Source: Eledone cirrhosa (Eukaryota). From it: DNA of 64,000 nt. The stretch is from assembly GCA_964016885.1 (NCBI GenBank), contig OZ024741.1, positions 99,820,001-99,884,000 of the forward strand, written 5' to 3'. Position 1 is the first letter of the stretch. Every line of letters begins with the position of its first letter. Positions 1,853 to 55,118 of this stretch are shown one piece after another. Both the position numbers and the translations under genes were made by a program. A model generated the notes under the pieces. It saw only the letters and a list, made by a program, of their open reading frames with translations. It was not told where the DNA came from and made no database searches.

Positions 1853-4800
1853 TTTTCTCTTTCTCTTAATTTTGAGTATATTTTTTGACCGGCCACCTTC
1901 CTGGTGGCAAGGTTGTAAAAGAAAAGAAATTGTCATCCCTTGAATCGCAAGAATGTTTTGCAAATTTTGAAGGTGCCAGCTATCGCAGCCATTTGTAGAC
2001 TATGAATTAGGGAGCTGCGCTTTTTGTCCGCAAATCCAAGTTCAGTCATACTTTGGTCCAAGCGGGTTGGTATATAACCCGTAGCACCAATAATGATGGG
2101 TATGAAGCTAAAGGTGTATCTTGGATACTGGATTTGTAAACTCCTCATCAATGGTCCGTAGATGTCCTCCTTCTCCTGTATTTTTCTGACAACGTTTACA
2201 TCAAGTGGGCAGCTGATCTCCACAACAGAACACGTTTTCAATGTGTGGTCCCAAACTACAATATCAGGCCGGTTGTGCTTTAATTTGGTGGCAGTTTTTA
2301 TTTTCAGGTTCCACCAGTATTCCTTAGTGCCATCTGTCTCAATATATTCTTCCTCGTTTGTTGTTGATTTTGTTTTCCGAAGTGCGTTCCAGATGGTTCT
2401 AGCTATCCCATCGTGTCTCATGGGCAGGTAGTAGCGAGATGACATTCTTTCGCAGCTGGCAACAATGTGGCTTACATCCTCGATCTTTGTTTTACATAGC
2501 CTACATTTATTGTCAGCTGCTGGCCCTCCTCTTTTGTGCAGCAGATATTTGGTAGGGAGTTCTTGTTCCTGTATTGCATAGAGATATCCCTCAAGGTGTG
2601 ATGTCATAAACTTGTCGGAACTCCATGCCAGGCTTTTTGAGTGGTTTATCCCCTCTATGGTCTGTGTTTTACGCCTCAAGTATCCATGCACAACTTTTTC
2701 TGTAAATTGGTCAATTTTTTTTTCTTGTTTGAACATTGAATAGGATCTTCCGATTTCTCTGGGTGAGAGATTTATATCGGGCTTTATTCCATATCTCTCC
2801 TCCAGATCAGTCGCTATTCTGATGATATTTCTTTTTTCATGGTCATAAACCTGGGCAAGATGGTTGCCAACCTTTTTCCTCTGTTGAAGGTATTGCTTCA
2901 GTGTCACTATCCGGGTCTCATATGTTGTTAATATTGATTTTAGACCCCGACCACCTTCCTTGCGTGAGAAGTATAGCCTATCCACATCACCATTGATGTT
3001 AAAGTTCCCAGTAACACTGAGAAGTTTTCGAGTTCTAACATCCATCTCACTTAGTTCTTGCAATGACCAGTTCAGTAGGCCAAATGTTGGCGTTAGAATT
3101 GGCACAGCATAAGTATTGTGGGCAATGTATTTGTTGTATGCTGACAGTTCTGATGACCATATTTTCTTTACTCTTCTGAGGTATTCAGTTCTGGTTCTCT
3201 CCTTATTTATGGGTCCATCATATCTGACATTCTCATCCTGTCCAAGATATCTGTAGTTGTCACCTGACTGCAGAGGTTGTATTGTCAGGCCGTTCATCTC
3301 TAGATTTCTAGAGGAGGGCACAGCTCTTCCACGTTTTACTGCCAAATATGCACACTTGGACTCACCAAATTTCATTTTGATGTCGGTTGAAAATTGTGTA
3401 ATGAGGTCCAATTGTTTCTTGATGTCATTGATATTTGGCCCATACAACTTCAGGTCATCAACAAAGAAAAGATGGGAGATACTTCTGGTCCCACTTCTTT
3501 GTCGACCTTGTTTCCTGAGTAGGTAAGATAGTGGATTCAGTGAGAGAACGAAGAGTAGCACTGACAAGCTATCACCCTGAAAGATGCCCTTCTGGTAATG
3601 TATCTTATCAGTCTTAACCTGCTCCTTCTCACCTCTAAGGATCAAACTGGTGTACCAGTTCTTGGTCAGGCGTTCAACAGCAGCTACCAATGGTTGTGGG
3701 ACTTTAGCTAACTGTAAAGCCTTAACAATCCACCCATGAGGTACACTATCAAATGCTTTTTGATAGTCCAGCCACACGACAGTCATGTTTCTGCGATTCT
3801 TTGTTGTTTTTTCCTGAATCATTTTGTTAGTTAGATCTATGCAACCCCACACCTCCCTCTTTCCACCAGCTTGCTCAGGTGTTATGATGTTGTTGGTAGC
3901 ACAGTGATCCTGTAAGAACAGGTTAAGGCACCCAGTATATAATTTATACATGATGTTTTGGCAGGCAATTGGGCGGTAATTTTTAGCAAGGGTGGTTTGG
4001 CTATTTTTGGGAATGAGGAGAGTAGAGGCAGTTGATAACCATCTGGGCAGTTCTTGTGTGCCCTTAATGGTTTCTGTAAACAGCCGTATGAGATCTTGCC
4101 GATAGAAAGTGAAATTCTTCAACCAGTATCCTGTAATGAGGTCTGGGCCTGGCGATTTCCTATTCGACATTTTCTGTAGAGCTGTTTCCAGTATTGACCC
4201 ATCTATGTCATATTGTTTTGTCTGGACATGTTGGCAGTAGTCCTGTTCCAGTTCTTTTAGCCAATTAGCTTGTCTGTTGAATCCGTCATCCGTTTCCCAT
4301 ACAGATCTCCAGTAGCTCTCAACCTGTTCTTTTGAAGGGGTGTCATTTACAGAGATTGAGCTTTTGCCACCGAAGCTGCGATAAACTGATTTAGGATCTC
4401 TGGCAAACAATCTATTTAGCACTTGTCGTTTATGTGCTGTTGACTTATATTTTAGTCTTTCTGTTGTAGCTGTGAGTTGTTGTTTCAACTGGTGTAATTT
4501 GGAGTTCAAAGTTTTAAATTTTGTATCTCCAAATCTTCTCTCTAACATTTTCTTTAGGTCTTCCTGGTGTTGTGTGAAGTTGCTCTCTATGTTGCATTTC
4601 ATAACGACTGCGATGTGTGAGATACTTCGTCTCAGGGACAAAATTTTGGTTTTTAAATTTCGCATCCACGCTGGTTCAGGCTTTCTGTTTGTATCTTGAT
4701 TGCGTGGTTTTAGATGTGTGTTATATGCTAGCAATGTGACAGCTGAAACATATAACAAAACATTAAGCGTTTCAAATGTCGTTTCTACACCTTTAGATCG

Positions 4801-5872
4801 TATAGCCTTCAGATAATTGCCAGCTATTTCGTTCACCGCTTCCAATTCCAATTTAGTGGGTTCTTTACTGACTCTAGTGTTGTATGGTCTGTCACTCACA
4901 TTAAGGCTGTGTATCTCTTGAAACATATCATTCCATATCACTTGTAGGGAGCCCACAAGTTTTTGGTGCTCTGTTTGTTCAGTAGAGTCATGAATTTCAG
5001 TCTCGTTGTTGATGTGGTGACAATTACTACTAGAGTCAGCTGACCTTTCTCGCTGTTCTTCAGTGGAAGTGGGATGAATTTCAGCAAAATTGTTGGTGAG
5101 CTGTTCACTGTTAGATTTAGCTGGCCATTCTCTTTGTCTGTCAGTGGAGGTGGGGTGGTTGTCTACAAGGGCTGTATTTGTAGTATCACTCGATTCCGTT
5201 AGATGTATCAATTTACATCTAATGATACGTTTTGCCTGTTCATTTAAATGCTTTGGAGAAAAGTCTAATTCTGGGTGTTTGGAGTTCCATAAAGTTTTTA
5301 GCCGTTGCATAAAACCGAACTTTTGGGGTTCAGATTGTTTGTATGCTTCATATAATACTTTGTTAAGCTCGTAGGTCCACTGTGTACAACGGTTGTAATT
5401 GCGATTTGGTCGAAGGAGACTTGTACTTTTTGCCATGATGAGTTCGTCTATTCACTAATATTTCGTATTTATTTTTCAAAATAGTCGATGATCTTCTTTA
5501 AAAGTTACGACAAAGTTCTGTCAGAATCAAATTTAAAGTTATTCACAGCTTGAGTAATATTTCTTTTCAGTTAGTTTTTAATTCTACAGCTGTGTTTTAT
5601 ATAAATGTAATATTTCTTTATAAATGTAATATAACAACGTTGCATTTATATGTTAAAGTGTATGTATCGTTCATATATCATAAGTGTATGTATCGTTCAT
5701 ATAAATAGGTGTTTTACAACACACTTACAGTTCAAACACTTATGTAGAATTATTGTATGTAATCTTACCGCGTAATGTAGCTCAACTTTTTCCAATATAT
5801 GGTATGTTGCCTTCATGTAAGCCGTAATTACACACGTCCGATTATCGGACACTGACCACAACGGTCGCCTTT

Positions 5873-8819: not shown

Positions 8820-9085
8820 GCAAAAGTTATATTTAAATTGTTGGGATACAACAAGCAAATATTTTTATAACTGATATAAAGCACTCGACAAGTATTTGGA
8901 GTATCCCTGATGTCTTCCAAAAGTAACGGTTGCATTTTGAAAGGGTATGTCAACATTTATTTATAAAACTGGTATATATTGTATTTTGTCTGATGAAAGC
9001 ATTCCATAATTTAACATGGTATCCTTGAAACATGTATAATAAAATAGATATGGTTTTATAAATATAGTTTCCATTTGTTAATATC

Positions 9086-12934: not shown

Positions 12935-13690
12935 GTGTTTTGAAACTGTGAGCAGATTTGTAATTAGAAAATAGAATAGCGTTCACCGTATTTTTGACTA
13001 AAGGAATTTTAGCCTGATAATGGGGTTTAGAACCCTCAGATAAATGGAAAAAGATGAGTATTGACTTACTTGTGAGTCGAACCCACATCTTTGGTTATCG
13101 CGACCACTGTGCTACCATTACACCAACACATCACCCATCTCTTTCCATTCAAATTAGAAGCTACATTCTTAGCGAGTTTAAATGGCAAGTAAGTATGTTT
13201 TGAAACAGTGAGCAGGTTTGAAATTAGAAAATGGAATACCTTTCACCGTATTTTTTGACTAAAGGAATTTTAGCCTGATAATGGGGTTTAGAACCCTCAG
13301 ATAAATGGAAAAAGATGAGTATTGACGTACATGGGAGTCGAACCTACATCTTTGATTATCGCGACCACTGAGGGTTCTAAACCCCATTATCAGGCTAAAA
13401 TTCCTTTAGTCAAAAATACGGTGAAAGCTATTCTACTTTCTAATTTCAAACCTGCTCACTGTTTCAAAACATACTTACTTGCCATTTAAACTCGCTAAGA
13501 ATGTATCTTCTAATTTGAATGGAAAGAGATGGGTGATGTGTTGGTGTAATGGTAGCACAGTGGGCGCGATAACCAAAGATGTGGGTTCGACTCCCATGTA
13601 CGTCAATACCCATCTTTTTCCATTCATCTGAGGGTTCTAAACCCCATTATCAGGCTAAAATTCCTTTAGTAAAAAATACGGTGAAAGCTA
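12935..13690. mobile_element. Fold-back of tandem 260-nt units containing a tRNA-like domain
   Basis: Left arm ~1.7 units (minus), right arm ~1.2 units (plus), inversion point ~13370, (TA)n on both sides. Confidence 0.8.
13535..13605 (+). ncRNA. tRNA-like (Pol III promoter) domain; second copy 13062-13132 on minus
   Basis: TGGTGTAATGG A-box, GGTTCGACTCC B-box/T-arm, acceptor-like stem; atypical anticodon loop. Confidence 0.65.
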
Positions 13691-27361: not shown

Positions 27362-27740
27362 ATATATTAGTAAAAGGAAAAGAAAATGCTGACACATTTT
27401 TCCCAGTGAAAAATAGTTTAATTAGGAATAAGTATAAATTAGTAAAAAGTATTGGTGAATATTCAGTTTTAGTTAAAATTTTTTACCGGTTGCGCATTTC
27501 TGATGCTTTTCAAAAATAATATTGAGATAGAGCGCTCGTGATGTTTGCTCTAATCAGATTAGAGCAAACATCACGAACGCTCTATCTCAAAATTATTTTT
27601 GAAAAGCATTAGAAATGCGCAACCGGTATAAACTTAAAACTAAAACTGAATACTAACCAATACTTTTACTAATTTATACTTATTCCTAATTAAACTATTT
27701 TTCACTGGGAAACATTTGTCAGCATTTTCTTTTCCTTTTA

Positions 27741-27779: not shown

Positions 27780-28592
27780 GGAAAAACTGAAACGAAATTT
27801 CATTTCTCACTTTTAGTACGGCTGTTACTTAAATATAAGTATCTATACGTAAATACATATATGTATACTGACGTACAGTAGTATGTATATATATATATAT
27901 ATACATATATGCACACATATATATATATATGTACGTATGGATTCACCGAACATTTATTATAATGCTCGGTGTGTTTGTAAACAAACATCCCGAATTAAGC
28001 CGTACAGTGTCTAGCAACCATCGTTGCTCATTTGTTCAACACTGACACACGAACGCTGTACTAGTTTCAAGCTTATTAGCTATCGTCAGCAACGTATACC
28101 TTCTTGCCACATGATTGAACGTCTGAAAGTATATACTTTCCTTATGCATATTAAAGGCTTATCGTTTCGGTGCGCCCGGCCGATTAACTCACTCGATATG
28201 TAAATTAGGCTGCTCAGCCGTTAATATGCATAAGGAAAGTATATACTTTCAGACGTTCAATCATCTGGCAGGAAGGTATACGTTGCTGACGATAGCTAAT
28301 AAGCTTGAAACTAGTACAGCGTTCCTTTGTCAGTGTTGAACAAATGAGCATCGATGGTTGCTAGACACTGTACGGCTTAATTCGGGATGTTTGTTTACAA
28401 ACTCACCGAGCATTATAATAAATGTTCGGTGAATCCATACGTACATATATATATATGTGTGCATGTATGTATATATATATACATACTACTGTACGTCTGT
28501 ATACATATATGTATGTACGTATACATACTTATATTTAAGTAACAGCCGTACTAAGAGTGAGAAATGAAATTTCGTTTCATTTTTTCCGTTTA
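27774..28592. mobile_element. ~380-bp-arm fold-back with an HHR in each arm
   Basis: Arms nearly complementary; (TA)n on both sides. Confidence 0.88.
28280..28322 (+). ncRNA. Minimal hammerhead ribozyme (mirror copy 28053-28095, minus)
   Basis: ACGTTG-CTGACGA-TAGCTAATAAGCTT-GAAA-CTAG-TA-CAGCGT; cleavage predicted after 28316. Confidence 0.85.
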
Positions 28593-29269
28593 TATATATA
28601 TGAATAAAGTTAGTCCTTCATCAGTGATCTTCCAACCTTCATTGGTATTTCATCGCTTTAAAGACCATATACCTCCGGTTGGTGCGAGCAACGTCTAAAG
28701 AAAGTCGTTGGGACACGTAAATAAGGGGAACGAGCGAAACTATAAACAAAGATGGTAATGCAACGGAGAGTGAGGAAGAAAGAGCCAAGTCCCAGATTTC
28801 CATGAATATATGTTCGGTGAAATCGTGAAGGAGAGAGAATAAAGACCATCAAACCTAGTCGAAATGTGAGCAAGGAAGGAATTCCGCACAGGTCAAACGG
28901 GAGGAAGAAGGAGTCTAGTCCCTGAATTCGGTGAACATAAGTTCTGTGAAATCGTAGACAAGAGAGAAAATGTATGTATATATATATATGTATATAGATG
29001 TATATATGTGTATATATATATATAAATATGTATATATATATTATGTGAGTGTGTGTCTGTGTGTGTCCGTGTGTGTGTGAGGGGAAACCGAAAACAATGC
29101 GCTTCAGTACGAAAATTATTAAGAATTAGTAAGCAAGTGAAAAAGTGTTTCAGAATTTCATGTAGGAAGAATTTAATATATGCGACCTCTCTCCATGTGT
29201 ATCACTTAGAACATGCAAAACACATTAATGTACAAAAAAACAACAACAACAACATATAATGTGTGCATG

Positions 29270-43610: not shown

Positions 43611-44806
43611 ATGGGGGCATATTTTACAGGTTATACATTTCTTATCTATACATGAGGGTCTTTGGAACGGGTATGTCTTGCTAATAAGTGGCCTTGTTCC
43701 TAGTTCTTTCTATTCTATTCCAAAATTTGCTCCTATACAAGGGGCAGGTCCCATTTATGTCTTGTATAGGAGCACATTTTGGAATAGAATAGAAAGAACT
43801 AGGAACAAGGCCAATAGAATAAACTCATGGTATGATAGCAATAAATACCAGAGTGTAATGTTCATCAATACAACCCCTAGAGGCGAACTAGCCTACAAAT
43901 TTAGAAGGGCCCTAAATAAACATAAACTCAATATTAAGATAGTAGAAAGACCAGGTACCTCCGTAAAAACACTTATTAGCAAGACATACCCGTTCCAAAG
44001 ACCCTCATGTATAGATAAGAAATGTATAACCTGTAAAATAAGCCCCCATATTAACTGTAAAACTAGAAATGTAGTGTATAGCATAAGATGTACTGAAGGA
44101 CAATGTAGAAACAAAAATATAGTGTACATAGGTGAGACAGCTCGTAGTATAGGGGAACGAATAAATGAACACCGGCGAGACCTTCAAGATAATAAAGAAT
44201 CATCTGTGCTCTACCAACATGCTAAGATAGAACACAGGGGTAAATTAGAGAACATAGAAATAAAAATAGAATCCACACACAGAAAAGATGCAATGTTTAG
44301 GCAAATTACAGAGGCAGTAAGCATAAAAGAATTACAACCAAAATTAAATAGAAAATATGAGTGGAACAGCAACATCACAACTTACAATTAAGGACAAAAT
44401 GAAAACACACACACACATAGAACAAACAACCAACCAACAATAAATAAATAAATAAATAAATAAACAAATAGATAAATGAACACAAACACACACAGACACC
44501 CGGATGTGGCGCATGCGCAAACTGAGCACACAACACACACACAGAAACAAAATGGCGTAGGACAGAAGAAAGGAAAGGCACAGAAACAAAGAAAGGAATC
44601 CCCAGTCACTGAAGAGGTCACAGAGTGTGTGATGAAAGGACTATGACTATATATAAACAACTATCTGGTTGTGGAACCAACCAACCAACCAGAAATTTAT
44701 AAGTTTGTAGATTTGTAAATTTATAAATTTATAAATATATAATAAATTGAAGTGAAAGTAACTGGTGCGTGTGTTTCTTATTGGTAACATGACCCTCCCA
44801 AAGTAT

Positions 44807-44882: not shown

Positions 44883-45175
44883 AAAAAGAGATGAAATCGA
44901 AAATGCAACTGGAGTCTTATTTTTGTAAAAAATATATATATTTATTTGGTTCCTTTACCGGTTTCGCAGTTCTTCTGCTTTTCAAAAGGTGAGTTGAGAT
45001 GGAGGGTCTGTGGTTTTTCTCACATCTGTCAGAAAAACCACAGACCCTCCATCTCAACTCACCTTTTGAAAAGCAGAAGAACTGCGATACCGGTAAAGGA
45101 ACCAAATAAATATATATATTTTGAAAAAAAATAAGACTCCAGTTGCATTTTCGATTTCATCTCTCTTTCTTTATA
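44878..45175. repeat. ~145-bp-arm fold-back with U3-A8 HHR
   Basis: Centre ~45026; arms nearly complementary. Confidence 0.88.
44952..44989 (-). ncRNA. Minimal HHR, UUGAAAA core (mirror 45062-45099)
   Basis: CCTT-TTGAAAA-GCAGAAGAACTGC-GAAA-CCGG-TA-AAGG. Confidence 0.7.
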
Positions 45176-45316: not shown

Positions 45317-45368
45317 TTAATCTGTTATTTTAATAAATATATATATATATATATATATAAATATACAT

Positions 45369-45453
<85 letters not shown>

Positions 45454-45599
45454 TATATATATATATACATATACATATATTTATATATATATATATATAT
45501 AAATGAAAAGTATAGAAATTGTTGTAGCGAGAATCTAATACACACATATACATACATATACGCACACATATACATATATATATATATATATATACAAAT

Positions 45600-47100
45600 A
45601 AGTACTCATAAATATACGCATATACACAGTCACATAAAAACAGCTCTACAGGCAGAAAATGCTGATAGGTAAGTGGTACTCACATAACCATAGTGGCCGT
45701 ATTTCAGGTTGAGGAGGGGTGGGGTGGGGTGGGAATTAGGTAGAGAGGTTAAAAGGAGGAAGTCGTTTTTAGCCATCGGGCATTAACACTGGCTTAATTT
45801 ATCTGAAAGTTGCAAAGTTCTTGTGCATGCAGTTCGGGCAGTATTCAGAGAGTTCGTTCAGTAGCGGGCCCTTGGCGAATAAAATTTCATAGCTCTCTGA
45901 GATACAAAGTTTACAGCCCTTGTGTCCTCCGTTGTAAGAGCGCGCTTTCTGGAGTATTTTCCATTTAAGCGTGAAGGGGGTGAAGTTTATTTTGAGGTCC
46001 CAAACATAGGAGGCGAGTGTTGTCTGGTTTGATTTGTCCGGTCTTCTGTAGGAGTGGGTATGGGCATACCAACGGGTCTTAAAGTTATTGGAAGTCATGC
46101 CGATGTAAGTCTTTTTGTTATTGCAATCATCGGTGCCTGAGATGACATCGCATTTGTATACGATATCATTTGTCAGGCATTTGTTTTCAAGTGGGCAGGC
46201 TTCCTTATTTAGGCAATTACGCAAGTCCCCAGTCAGGGTATTGGGTTCGGAGGTGGTTGGCTTATTTAATTTTTTAGAATTGTGGTTGGCTATATTGCTA
46301 GCTAGCTTAGGTGTGGTGGAGTAGGAGAGTCTTATTGTGTTTTTATTAAGGATGGTGTAGTACCTAAGTTGTATGGGGAAGTGTGTTTTCAGCAAAGTGA
46401 AGAAAATCCTAGCTATCGGTGTAGAGACCTCTCTATTGAAGGGAGGGTTGTACCAGCTAATCTGCCTATGCCTATTCTTCCTCTGCAAACTTGCGGTGGT
46501 TTCTAGGTAGGTTATCTTTTCTTTAAATCCGCTGCGGGCGAGGGCGTCATTGTAGTAGGAGGCAGAGGCGTTAAAATATCTTCGTTGGCAGAGAGGCCAG
46601 AGATTCTAATAGAGACGCTTTTTACTAAGTTATCAGTGATGTTTTGGGGGTGGTTAGAATTAACATTAATTTATCTAAGGGACTCGTTAGGTTTGTGGTA
46701 CGGGTAATAGAGGGAAGTATCTAGGTCGAGAGTGACATCTAAGAAGTTGGTCCTAGTCATGTTAGATTCTATAGTTATACTAAATCCTAGATTAGAGAAG
46801 AACGAGCTTAAGTTTCTCCGAAACCCATCGGTGGTTCTGGGGTTAACCTTGTGCATGGCGAAGAGGCCGTCGTCTCGGTATAAAGGTTAGGCCCGTAAAG
46901 GGGTTCTTCAGGTGATGTTAAATGTACAAGCCCACAAGGTCGCTAAGTTCACTCGAGTCACTCGCTCCCATGCTGACGTCAAATGGCGTCTGAAACGTCT
47001 TGTTGATCCAGTAAGATCCATCGTGGTATAGAAAGGTCTAACGGGCGTGGAGGATAACAAGTTGCTCAGCATCGGTAATGGTGGTAAAATTCCTGGCAAA
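45600..47100 (-). mobile_element. Penelope-like element, truncated RT + GIY-YIG
   Basis: LYRDD (~46870), TNFLDVTLDL, WYNPPF, CPLENKC, DIVYKC, TYIGMT, CKLCISE; frameshifts. Confidence 0.9.
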
Positions 47101-47109
47101 AGTAATTAT

Positions 47110-47216
47110 ATTTATTATAATGCTCGGTTTGTTTGTAAACAAACATCCCGAATTAAGCCGTGCAGTGTCTAGCAACCATCGTTGCTCATTTGTTCAACAC
47201 TGACAAAGGAACGCTG
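47110..47216 (-). mobile_element. Fragment of the 27774-28592 family starting at the HHR cleavage site
   Basis: Matches 27952-28058. Confidence 0.85.
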
Positions 47217-47282
47217 GCCTGTTAGCTCAGTTGGTTAGAGCGTCGTGCTAATAACGCGAATGTCGTGGGTTCGAGCCCCATA
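47216..47282 (+). pseudogene. tRNA-Ile(AAT) retrocopy, 3'-truncated
   Basis: GGCCTGTTAGCTCAGTTGGTTAGAGCGTCGTGCT-AAT-AACGCGAATGTCGTGGGTTCGAGCCCC; 3' acceptor strand missing. Confidence 0.85.
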
Positions 47283-47286
47283 TTAC

Positions 47287-47343
<57 letters not shown>

Positions 47344-47719
47344 CTGTGTGTGTGTGTGTGTGGTTGTGTTTTGAAAGAGTGACAAGGACGCTTACCACGC
47401 CTCATGCCTTTGTATTGGAGTACATCGTTTGTATGGAGAGTGGAGTATGAAATGTATATTTATCTACTAAATAGAAAACATCCTCAATCAGCATCTCGGA
47501 GTTGAACATTTTAGGTGTGGATGTATCTTGTCATATCTAGCATGGGAAAGAAAGTCTGTGGTGAGGAAATCAAATTTAATTGACCATACAATATATGCGT
47601 GAATCATGCGTTCAATATATATTCACTGTTATTATCTGACACTAATATACATGCTTATTAAACGACCGAAATACAATTCTTCCTATCTCGGATTCTCTCT
47701 CTCAATATATCAAACAACT

Positions 47720-53710: not shown

Positions 53711-54946
53711 CCACGTATTATTCCACTGAATCAAGTTTTTAAAGTTAACCAATATATCTATCTTTGGACAAGTTATTGAGTATATAGTACTTGGTAGCTG
53801 TCAGTAAGAGATACATTTCTGAGACAGGAAACTACACCAAACGAATTCTACTGTTGTAAAGAATTTGCCAGATATATCTAAACACAACCAATTTTTCTCA
53901 CTTTGTTTTAATGTATTAAAGCAACGAGAACCATACTTTTTCCATGAGCATTCCAGTATTCCGTGATTGTTCTAACCTGTTAATGTTAAATCTATTTCTG
54001 AGTTAACGTTTTTGTTACCTTATTTCTGAAGCCATATTCGACAACACAAAAGACAATTCATTTTGCAGAAGCAGACTCTAGAAAGTCGTAAAAGCGAAAG
54101 TTAAGCTAATGTATTATATTCTGTATAAAAAGAAACAATCATTAGTCTACTACGTCTGGTATTTAACTGGAAATTCATCAATGTATGAATGGCCCAAAAT
54201 GGATTCAGAGTTAAAGAGTAAAAGACACATTCTAAGAAATGCAAGCAACATAAATTATCTGTTCACAGCAGAATGATGCCTAATCCTCCAAACCTTACGT
54301 GAAAACCGCCATTTAAACACTATATGCTAAATATTCGGGAAAGACAAATATTTCGAGACATACCATTCACAGAACAAGTAGGTACCACCTTCAGCAGATT
54401 ACCCTTAGTATATAAATTATGACAATAAAAACATAATACTGACCATAGATATTCATAGATAAAAATTATGATAAATTTGTACAACTAGTTTAGTGTGAGG
54501 TGTAAAACTCAACATTTCAAACATTTGTCCTTTTGGTTGATAAAAACATTATTCAAGTAATAGAATCAATAAATTTAACCATAGCAGAATTTGAACTCAA
54601 TTTCTAAAAGAACAAATTCAAATAGTTTTAGCATAATGCTGGGCGTGCTCTTTCAATACCTGCTTGCACAGCTCTTTGATATAAGAACTAATAGAGGGTT
54701 CAATAATTCCACAACCGAATATATCACAACAGTACCTTTAATGTTAGAGTAGTACACTTGAACTAAGATATTGACATTTGATTTCTCGATTGTCTTCTGT
54801 GAAACACCTCGGGAGAATTTACTTTCAATAAATATGCTTATATACAGACACACAGACAGACAATAAGGCAGACTGGCAAACACACATATGCAGTTGTTAT
54901 TGCTGGTGTTCTCTTGTGGCTAAATATATATATATATATATATATA

Positions 54947-55100
54947 TAGTTTTTGTGTTGTTGTGGTAGTTATGGCGGTTTTATTATTGTTGTGTCTATT
55001 TATCTCTTTTGTGTTATATATATATATATATAACACAAAAGAGATAAATAGACACAACAATAATAAAACCGCAACAACTACCACAACAACACAAAAACTA
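54947..55100. repeat. Palindrome centred on (TA)n
   Basis: 54947-55014 is inverted against 55032-55100; related copy at 55425-55495. Confidence 0.85.
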
Positions 55101-55118
55101 TATATATATATATATATA

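Follow-up and report, generated by a model that had tools for sequence, protein, structure and literature searches.

A head-to-head junction between a hammerhead retrozyme piece and a tRNA-Ile(AAT) copy beside a Penelope-like element: a one-off variant of a chimera type known from LINE-1

Twin priming has been proposed as the origin of antisense tRNA/LINE-1 and 5S/LINE-1 chimeras (Law and Burns 2025, 10.1101/2025.02.02.635956). The Penelope-like element (PLE) PAc was reported to cleave AT-rich DNA and to extend both strands in vitro; initiation was internal, at two sites, and cleavage by the hammerhead ribozyme (HHR) was not needed (Frangieh et al. 2024, PMC11167929). Distribution and phylogeny have been used to link retrozymes with PLEs (Li et al. 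2026, 10.64898/2026.07.22.740005). A literature search found no paper on chimeras of PLEs or retrozymes with an antisense tRNA.

The composite described here consists of a hammerhead retrozyme piece joined head-to-head to a tRNA-Ile(AAT) copy, beside a broken PLE. It is found in the window (the whole stretch of 64,000 nucleotides that was analysed), which belongs to contig C2 of a 3.0-Gb microsatellite-rich animal genome (G000). The junction is considered a one-off variant of the chimera type already known from LINE-1.

Anatomy of the composite

Table 1. Features of the composite and of the reference retrozyme copies, by position in the window
Feature	Position	Strand	Description
(TA)n array at the PLE 3′ end	45333..45501	.	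Likely insertion target; PLE relatives align to ~45500 (loci L079, L028)
5′-truncated frameshifted PLE	45500..47107	-	C-terminal part of the RT (YRDDGL), cysteine linker, GIY-YIG, 3′ UTR
AT spacer (2 nt) between retrozyme piece and PLE	47108..47109	-	Untemplated, or remnant of the (TA)n target
Retrozyme piece	47110..47216	-	107 nt of the 433-nt unit, +1 to +107 from the predicted cut (GUA/C)
tRNA-Ile(AAT) copy	47216..47284	+	nt 1-69 of 74; one mismatch (47220); anticodon AAT at 47250-47252
ACT	47285..47287	+	Would resemble the trailer (3′) seen in array-type tRNA-Ile genes if 9 nt were lost
(TA)n then (TG)n, right flank	47287..47362	.
Reference type I hammerhead	28281..28321	+	Predicted cut 28316/28317
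Head-to-head pair of retrozyme copies	27930..28595	.	Right arm ends near the +279 site

The retrozyme/tRNA junction is real, as known from the assembly sequence. The retrozyme piece matches both 28423-28317 and 27952-28058 at 96% over 107 nt and is identical (107/107) to a copy in locus L002. Read on the minus strand, its first base is the one that follows GUA, as a preliminary description of this DNA had stated. The 5′-to-5′ fusion with tRNA-Ile(AAT) claimed there is likewise borne out, by an Rfam RF00005 match (47222-47282, 43.5 bits) and by 67/68 identity to gene copies of the genome. The piece does not carry the usual 3′ ends of its family (+223, +279), and its end at +107 is atypical. G47216 is common to both parts: it is C1.1 of the retrozyme (minus strand) and G1 of the tRNA (plus strand). 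The break is therefore placed at 28317 or 28318; if a gene leader was present on the tRNA template, it is fixed merely to 28317-28320. The tRNA copy had also been described as truncated at a TA next to (TA)n. The truncation and the (TA)n stand, but the match runs to nt 69 and ACT intervenes. Both outer ends of the composite are flanked by (TA)n, so no target-site duplication is readable.

The adjoining Penelope sequence of the preliminary description is present but is of a different family from the retrozyme. Its GIY-YIG domain scores below the cut-off (PF01541, E=6e-4), and a PDB search with the PLE fragment gave no match. The fragment is 90-95% identical to 29 relatives, which extend upstream of 47107. 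None of the 29 has this retrozyme at this position; two have a copy elsewhere in the locus. The upstream part of the PLE, sought beyond the tRNA copy with three relatives, was not found. Private changes number 37/1408 in the PLE part and 1/176 in the retrozyme and tRNA part (p=0.12, a gap that does not decide between one event and an older PLE). The ages of the two parts are compatible, unequal as they are.

It is very improbable that a tRNA gene or pseudogene came first and received the retroelements at its 5′ edge, or that the assembly is in error. The tRNA copy is broken at its 3′ end and is the only truncated tRNA-Ile copy of this kind returned by an exact-match pattern, no gene flank is present on either side of the composite, and the private substitutions of the window are typical of a real aged insertion. 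Misassembly of the junction is excluded only indirectly.

Other features of the window are as follows. A second GIY-YIG frame (43612-44391, +; E=1e-4) is probably another PLE fragment. An open frame of 1172 aa with RVT_1 and zf-RVT (1933-5451, -) belongs to a LINE-type element. ARAGORN calls a tRNA-Ser(CGA)-like sequence at 13534-13606 (+), which could be a SINE head. Near-perfect long hairpins (27504-27608, 43688-43814, 44976-45074, 54946-55101) have miRNA-model scores below the cut-off and are probably inverted insertions. Hammerhead-like motifs of other repeat families are found at 8990(+), 12568(+), 25286(-), 38138(-), 38895(-), 42916(-), 52811(-) and 56456(-).

Retrozyme family and breakpoints around the predicted hammerhead cut

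By anatomy, the repeat family is taken to be a non-LTR retrozyme. Its non-coding units, 433 nt long in locus L014, are arranged in tandem and have one type I HHR each; L030 contains four units, and arrays are spaced 420-430. Folded as a circle, the unit is highly self-paired (z=-7.4 versus 40 shuffles). Self-cleavage at 28316/28317, with C28317 as the base after the cut, is predicted from the motif CUGACGA...GAAA-CUAG-UA (28286-28316, +; mirror copy from 28089, -). Stem I of the reference hammerhead has 5 bp (28281-85/28317-21) and stem II 4 bp; stem III is palindromic. Helix III, a 2-bp stem with a palindromic 6-mer, has a self-duplex energy of -4.8 kcal/mol; a short palindromic helix III for dimeric folding is a described feature (PMC4209133). 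The core bases (CUGANGA, GAAA, UH) are kept in 94-100 of 100 copies, a count partly forced by the copy filter. The G10.1-C11.1 pair is absent, being replaced by U-U (89/100 copies) or C-A (7/100); U10.1-U11.1 is a reported natural hammerhead variant (PMC3088659). A U-G to G-U swap in stem I occurs in 12/100 copies, which form one subfamily, and the common cleavage-triplet variants of the family are exclusively NUH. No Rfam hammerhead match was found in the window among the matches listed (150 of 182), and the 55-nt motif, folded freely, does no better than shuffled sequences. In locus L066, a retrozyme copy has its hammerhead core deleted between the two stem I strands.

Segment ends were surveyed in 29 loci (L002-L030) that were not selected for their ends. 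The 3′ ends are concentrated at +220-224 or +276-279 (38/48; sharp sites +223 and +279, 56 nt apart), the 5′ ends are scattered, and 12 of the 29 loci contain a head-to-head pair. Two apparent 5′ ends at +1 were rejected as query-edge artefacts, and no break near the cut occurs in these loci. The two sharp 3′ ends correspond to the ‘tail’ signature of PLEs and point to PLE-type internal initiation, which would here act on a non-coding retrozyme.

Breaks near the cut were collected with a pattern for copies broken in 28311-28325. It gave 178 matches, of which the 100 listed (contigs C1-C4) were analysed: 72 head-to-head inversions, 22 joins to other sequence and 6 same-sense indels or duplications. 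Removal of the latter 6 and of 5 repeated contexts left 89 distinct breakpoints. Among these listed matches, 6/89 lie at 28317 (flat expectation 5.9; p=0.55) and 18/89 within 1 nt (p=0.52). Without the edge bin, the values are 6/77 and 18/77 (p=0.47 and 0.38). Microhomology of 1-3 nt is present at 33/48 clean inversion junctions of the family. One of the 22 non-inversion junctions is at 28317, and no short piece with an unusual 3′ end (n=4) starts within 1 nt of the cut. A pattern for the exact cut returned 14 matches; four are indels or a duplication, and the remaining 10 are real breaks, in line with the flat rate. At least 10,821 exact 29-nt matches read across the predicted cut.

The peak at GTA/C expected in the preliminary description is thus missing from the 89 breaks. 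The junction had been presented there as a fossil of in vivo self-cleavage; uniform breakpoints, which had been named as speaking against this claim, are what was found. From the flat rate, about 35 copies are estimated to break per base, or about 0.3% per base, assuming that the filter passes ~0.3 of random flanks, so one match to the cut is expected somewhere. A random break would be a ~0.3% event at this base and a ~1% event for the 4-nt interval. The match of the junction to the predicted cut is likely due to chance, helped by microhomology, since the family breakpoints have no peak there. The histogram samples mostly normal insertions, and the 47110 piece began at an unusual site. For normal insertions, the flat breakpoints suggest circular or uncleaved templates, as found in vitro for a PLE.

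In an alternative that is rather unlikely, the cut was involved. A linear retrozyme monomer, released by self-cleavage, would have been copied to its 5′-OH end, and a tRNA precursor, trimmed by RNase P but still bearing its trailer, to G1. Both cDNAs would have run off true RNA ends, joined at one shared base. The overlap has C1.1 and G1, the predicted 5′ ends of the two RNAs, as its exact outer edge, and the odds of a break at this base are 0.3-1%. The ribozyme core is intact, stem I has the U-G/G-U swap, the common triplet variants are NUH, and U10.1-U11.1 is a natural variant. Linear retrozyme RNA amounts to <5 to 25% in mussel (Cervera and de la Pena 2020, PMC7229834), and a template switch could use free RNA rather than the usual bound RNA. 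Against these points, there is no peak at the cut, either in the 89 breaks or in the 22 non-inversion junctions, and the real breaks found with the exact-cut pattern equal the flat-rate prediction. The locus was singled out post hoc, the activity of this ribozyme is a prediction from its motif, and Anolis RNA-seq is reported to have no reads ending at the PLE HHR cut (PMC11167929). The full scenario, in which a PLE-type RT caught a self-cleaved linear retrozyme and a nascent, 5′-trimmed, unedited pre-tRNA at the two ends of one break and reverse-transcribed each to its true 5′ end, is rather unlikely.

Similar junctions were sought elsewhere in the genome. A search for other tRNA retrocopies at the cut, proposed in the preliminary description, gave three matches, among which the window alone is a tRNA (L252 not read further). 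A B-box next to (TA)n gave 126 matches (overlapping rows); in the 37 distinct contexts read, the window is the sole clear tRNA copy. The other contexts were rejected as another hammerhead family, SINE-like heads or chance. Rfam found no tRNA, rRNA or snRNA at E<=0.05 in 20 loci (19/22 non-family junctions and L069).

Some loci deserve separate mention. Many B-box/(TA)n loci belong to one more hammerhead family. In L254 (1470-1600), this retrozyme, broken one base before the cut, is head-to-head with a second hammerhead family; the junction came from a pattern selecting for breaks at this position. In L218, a retrozyme copy is joined at 28313 to a tRNA-like (SINE-type) head of the same orientation, with no Rfam tRNA at E<=0.05.

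Template of the tRNA copy and formation of the composite

The tRNA copy keeps A34, G26 and A58 and has no CCA end. Modified bases at positions 26 and 58 of tRNAs are often misread. In mature ANN tRNAs, position 34 is believed to be almost completely inosine (I34), which is read as G, and in precursors to be edited in part (PMC4446420). The template was probably not a mature tRNA, given the A34 kept in the copy. The ACT after nt 69 would fit an array-gene trailer if 9 nt between two CCATATT repeats had been lost; at the corresponding trailer site, 28/30 gene copies have AC and 2/30 ACT. In the window, 5/184 (TA)6+ runs are entered through AC. A34 and the trailer-like ACT make it probable that the template was either a precursor before editing or the DNA of the gene. 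Edited G34 copies of tRNA-Ile were not found in the genome with an exact-match pattern, hence there is no positive control for RNA templates.

On the 5′ side, the leader of the best-matching genes ends in CT in 29/30 copies read, among which overlapping loci may double-count a gene. Another class of tRNA-Ile genes has a TA leader and, in 30/30 copies, a different nt 68. The 83 matches for 5′-intact tRNA-Ile with a non-CT leader are all within two clusters. If the leader was retained on the template, the overlap with the retrozyme strand is CTG, a microhomology of 3 nt; this triplet occurs 6 times in the antisense retrozyme unit. If RNase P had already trimmed the leader, the overlap is one base. 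The 5′ processing of pre-tRNA by RNase P precedes 3′ processing.

The arrays of tRNA-Ile(AAT) genes are noted here for themselves. One has a period of ~1578 bp (loci L034-L060, G000:C4 near 316.0 Mb). Its units also carry an opposite-strand tRNA-Ile copy that has its own leader and is broken off by a (CA)-rich tract at nt 49. The other has a period of ~1495 bp (C4, 315.87-315.95 Mb).

At its single mismatch (47220), the tRNA copy has the base that the retrozyme family shows in register (28313), which lies four bases upstream of the predicted cut. Such identity by chance is estimated at ~2% and would favour a strand that continued past the cut. Locus L015 reads like the window at the cut, and 17 further copies have GUC. 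A rare family variant as source of the mismatch was rejected on haplotype: the 4 variant copies that passed an ungapped filter (4/18) do not have the two diagnostic alleles of the window. These alleles have 2 carriers among 103 copies, both GUA.

Assembly at the DNA level is another explanation, also of low probability. In this case, the tRNA would have been copied from gene DNA during break repair, or separate insertions would have been fused by a deletion, with joining at a microhomology between leader and retrozyme. The unchanged A34, G26 and A58 and the trailer-like ACT are explained by DNA as well as by a precursor. The array leader and the retrozyme antisense strand have CTG in common, or 7 nt with one bulge; the retrozyme piece has no normal 3′ end; and the base at 28313 could mean that the retrozyme strand passed the cut. 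However, the tRNA copy has no gene leader beyond the shared bases, no T-run terminator and no other gene flank, and its closest gene copies among the matches listed are on other contigs than the window. Absence of the PLE upstream part beyond the tRNA (three relatives) also stands against this explanation, and L015, the sole copy in the family to share the reading of the window at the cut, does not have the two diagnostic alleles.

The somewhat favoured reading is a one-off scar of two-ended retrotransposition in (TA)n, whose match to the cut site is a likely coincidence helped by microhomology. A PLE protein would have cut AT-rich (TA)n DNA on both strands. The left end would have been extended on PLE RNA, with a subsequent template switch to retrozyme RNA from +107; alternatively, an older PLE may already have been in place, with the retrozyme copy beginning at its edge. 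The retrozyme RNA used as template was likely circular or uncleaved, and its copy truncated as others are. On the right, (TA)n would have served as primer on an unedited, trailer-bearing tRNA-Ile precursor, at its AU-rich 3′ part, as in tailless tRNA retropseudogenes (PMC5322556). The two cDNA ends would then have been joined via 1-3 nt of microhomology, as in the usual inversions of the family. Two-ended priming as such, taken over the two readings with a cleaved or an uncleaved retrozyme template, is probable. The claim in the preliminary description that two RNAs were copied from opposite sides of one break draws good support from analogy and from family anatomy, not from this locus itself.

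If the junction is RNA-templated, two-ended capture of host small RNAs extends to the PLE/retrozyme system, and A34 is a simple mark to separate precursor from mature tRNA templates. If the retrozyme template had been cleaved, the genome would here preserve a trace of hammerhead cleavage in an animal retrozyme, and also of host small RNAs captured by the action of a PLE. More weight attaches to the family data than to the single junction. Sharp 3′ ends, frequent head-to-head joins and the lack of a ribozyme-cut footprint point to internal initiation as in PLEs, on RNA that is circular or uncleaved. How animal retrozymes move thus becomes testable from genome sequence, and the end maps add mechanism-level support to the retrozyme-PLE link proposed by Li et al. 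2026 (10.64898/2026.07.22.740005).

Comparison with known systems

Human tRNA/LINE-1 and 5S/LINE-1 chimeras (10.1101/2025.02.02.635956) have a 3′-truncated small RNA in antisense at the 5′ end of a retroelement, as here. The start of the small RNA is at the junction (stated for 5S), which is also the case here, and the chimeras are explained by two reverse transcriptions from both ends of one break, as proposed for the present locus. The partner differs, being here a retrozyme and a PLE. The tRNA is of 69 nt with trailer-like bases here, whereas theirs is a half of 1-37 nt. The target-site duplication is unreadable here, and one locus is compared with 21 human tRNA/LINE-1 chimeras.

Animal non-LTR retrozymes (PMC7229834; 10.64898/2026.07.22.740005) share with this family a tandem non-coding unit of ~430 nt, one type I hammerhead per unit, a highly self-paired circle and thousands of copies. 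The present family is known from genome sequence, its circles and its cleavage being predicted. Breakpoint maps, fixed 3′ ends and tRNA fusions are not described for animal retrozymes in the parts of these two papers used here.

PLE insertions with ‘tails’ (Craig et al. 2021, PMC8557442; PMC11167929) are 5′-truncated and carry an inverted 5′-truncated copy at their 5′ end, as does this retrozyme family. The (TA)n targets and the two fixed 3′ ends are shared at the level of the retrozyme family. The inverted partner is here a host tRNA, and the element with these marks is non-coding. The 3′ ends are 56 nt apart here, versus a tail of 30-40 bp.

Tailless tRNA retropseudogenes (Noll et al. 2015, PMC5322556) are 3′-truncated copies, processed or unprocessed, with no oligo(A) tail and with an AT-rich match to the target, as here. 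They are stand-alone LINE-1 products with target-site duplications, whereas the present copy is fused head-to-head to another cDNA.

R2 elements have their 5′ junction at the cut of an HDV-like ribozyme (PMC3774820), which is the same idea of a genomic junction recording a ribozyme cut. In R2 of Drosophila, a junction at the cut site is the rule (PMC3774820); in this retrozyme family, the cut has no more junctions than neighbouring bases do.
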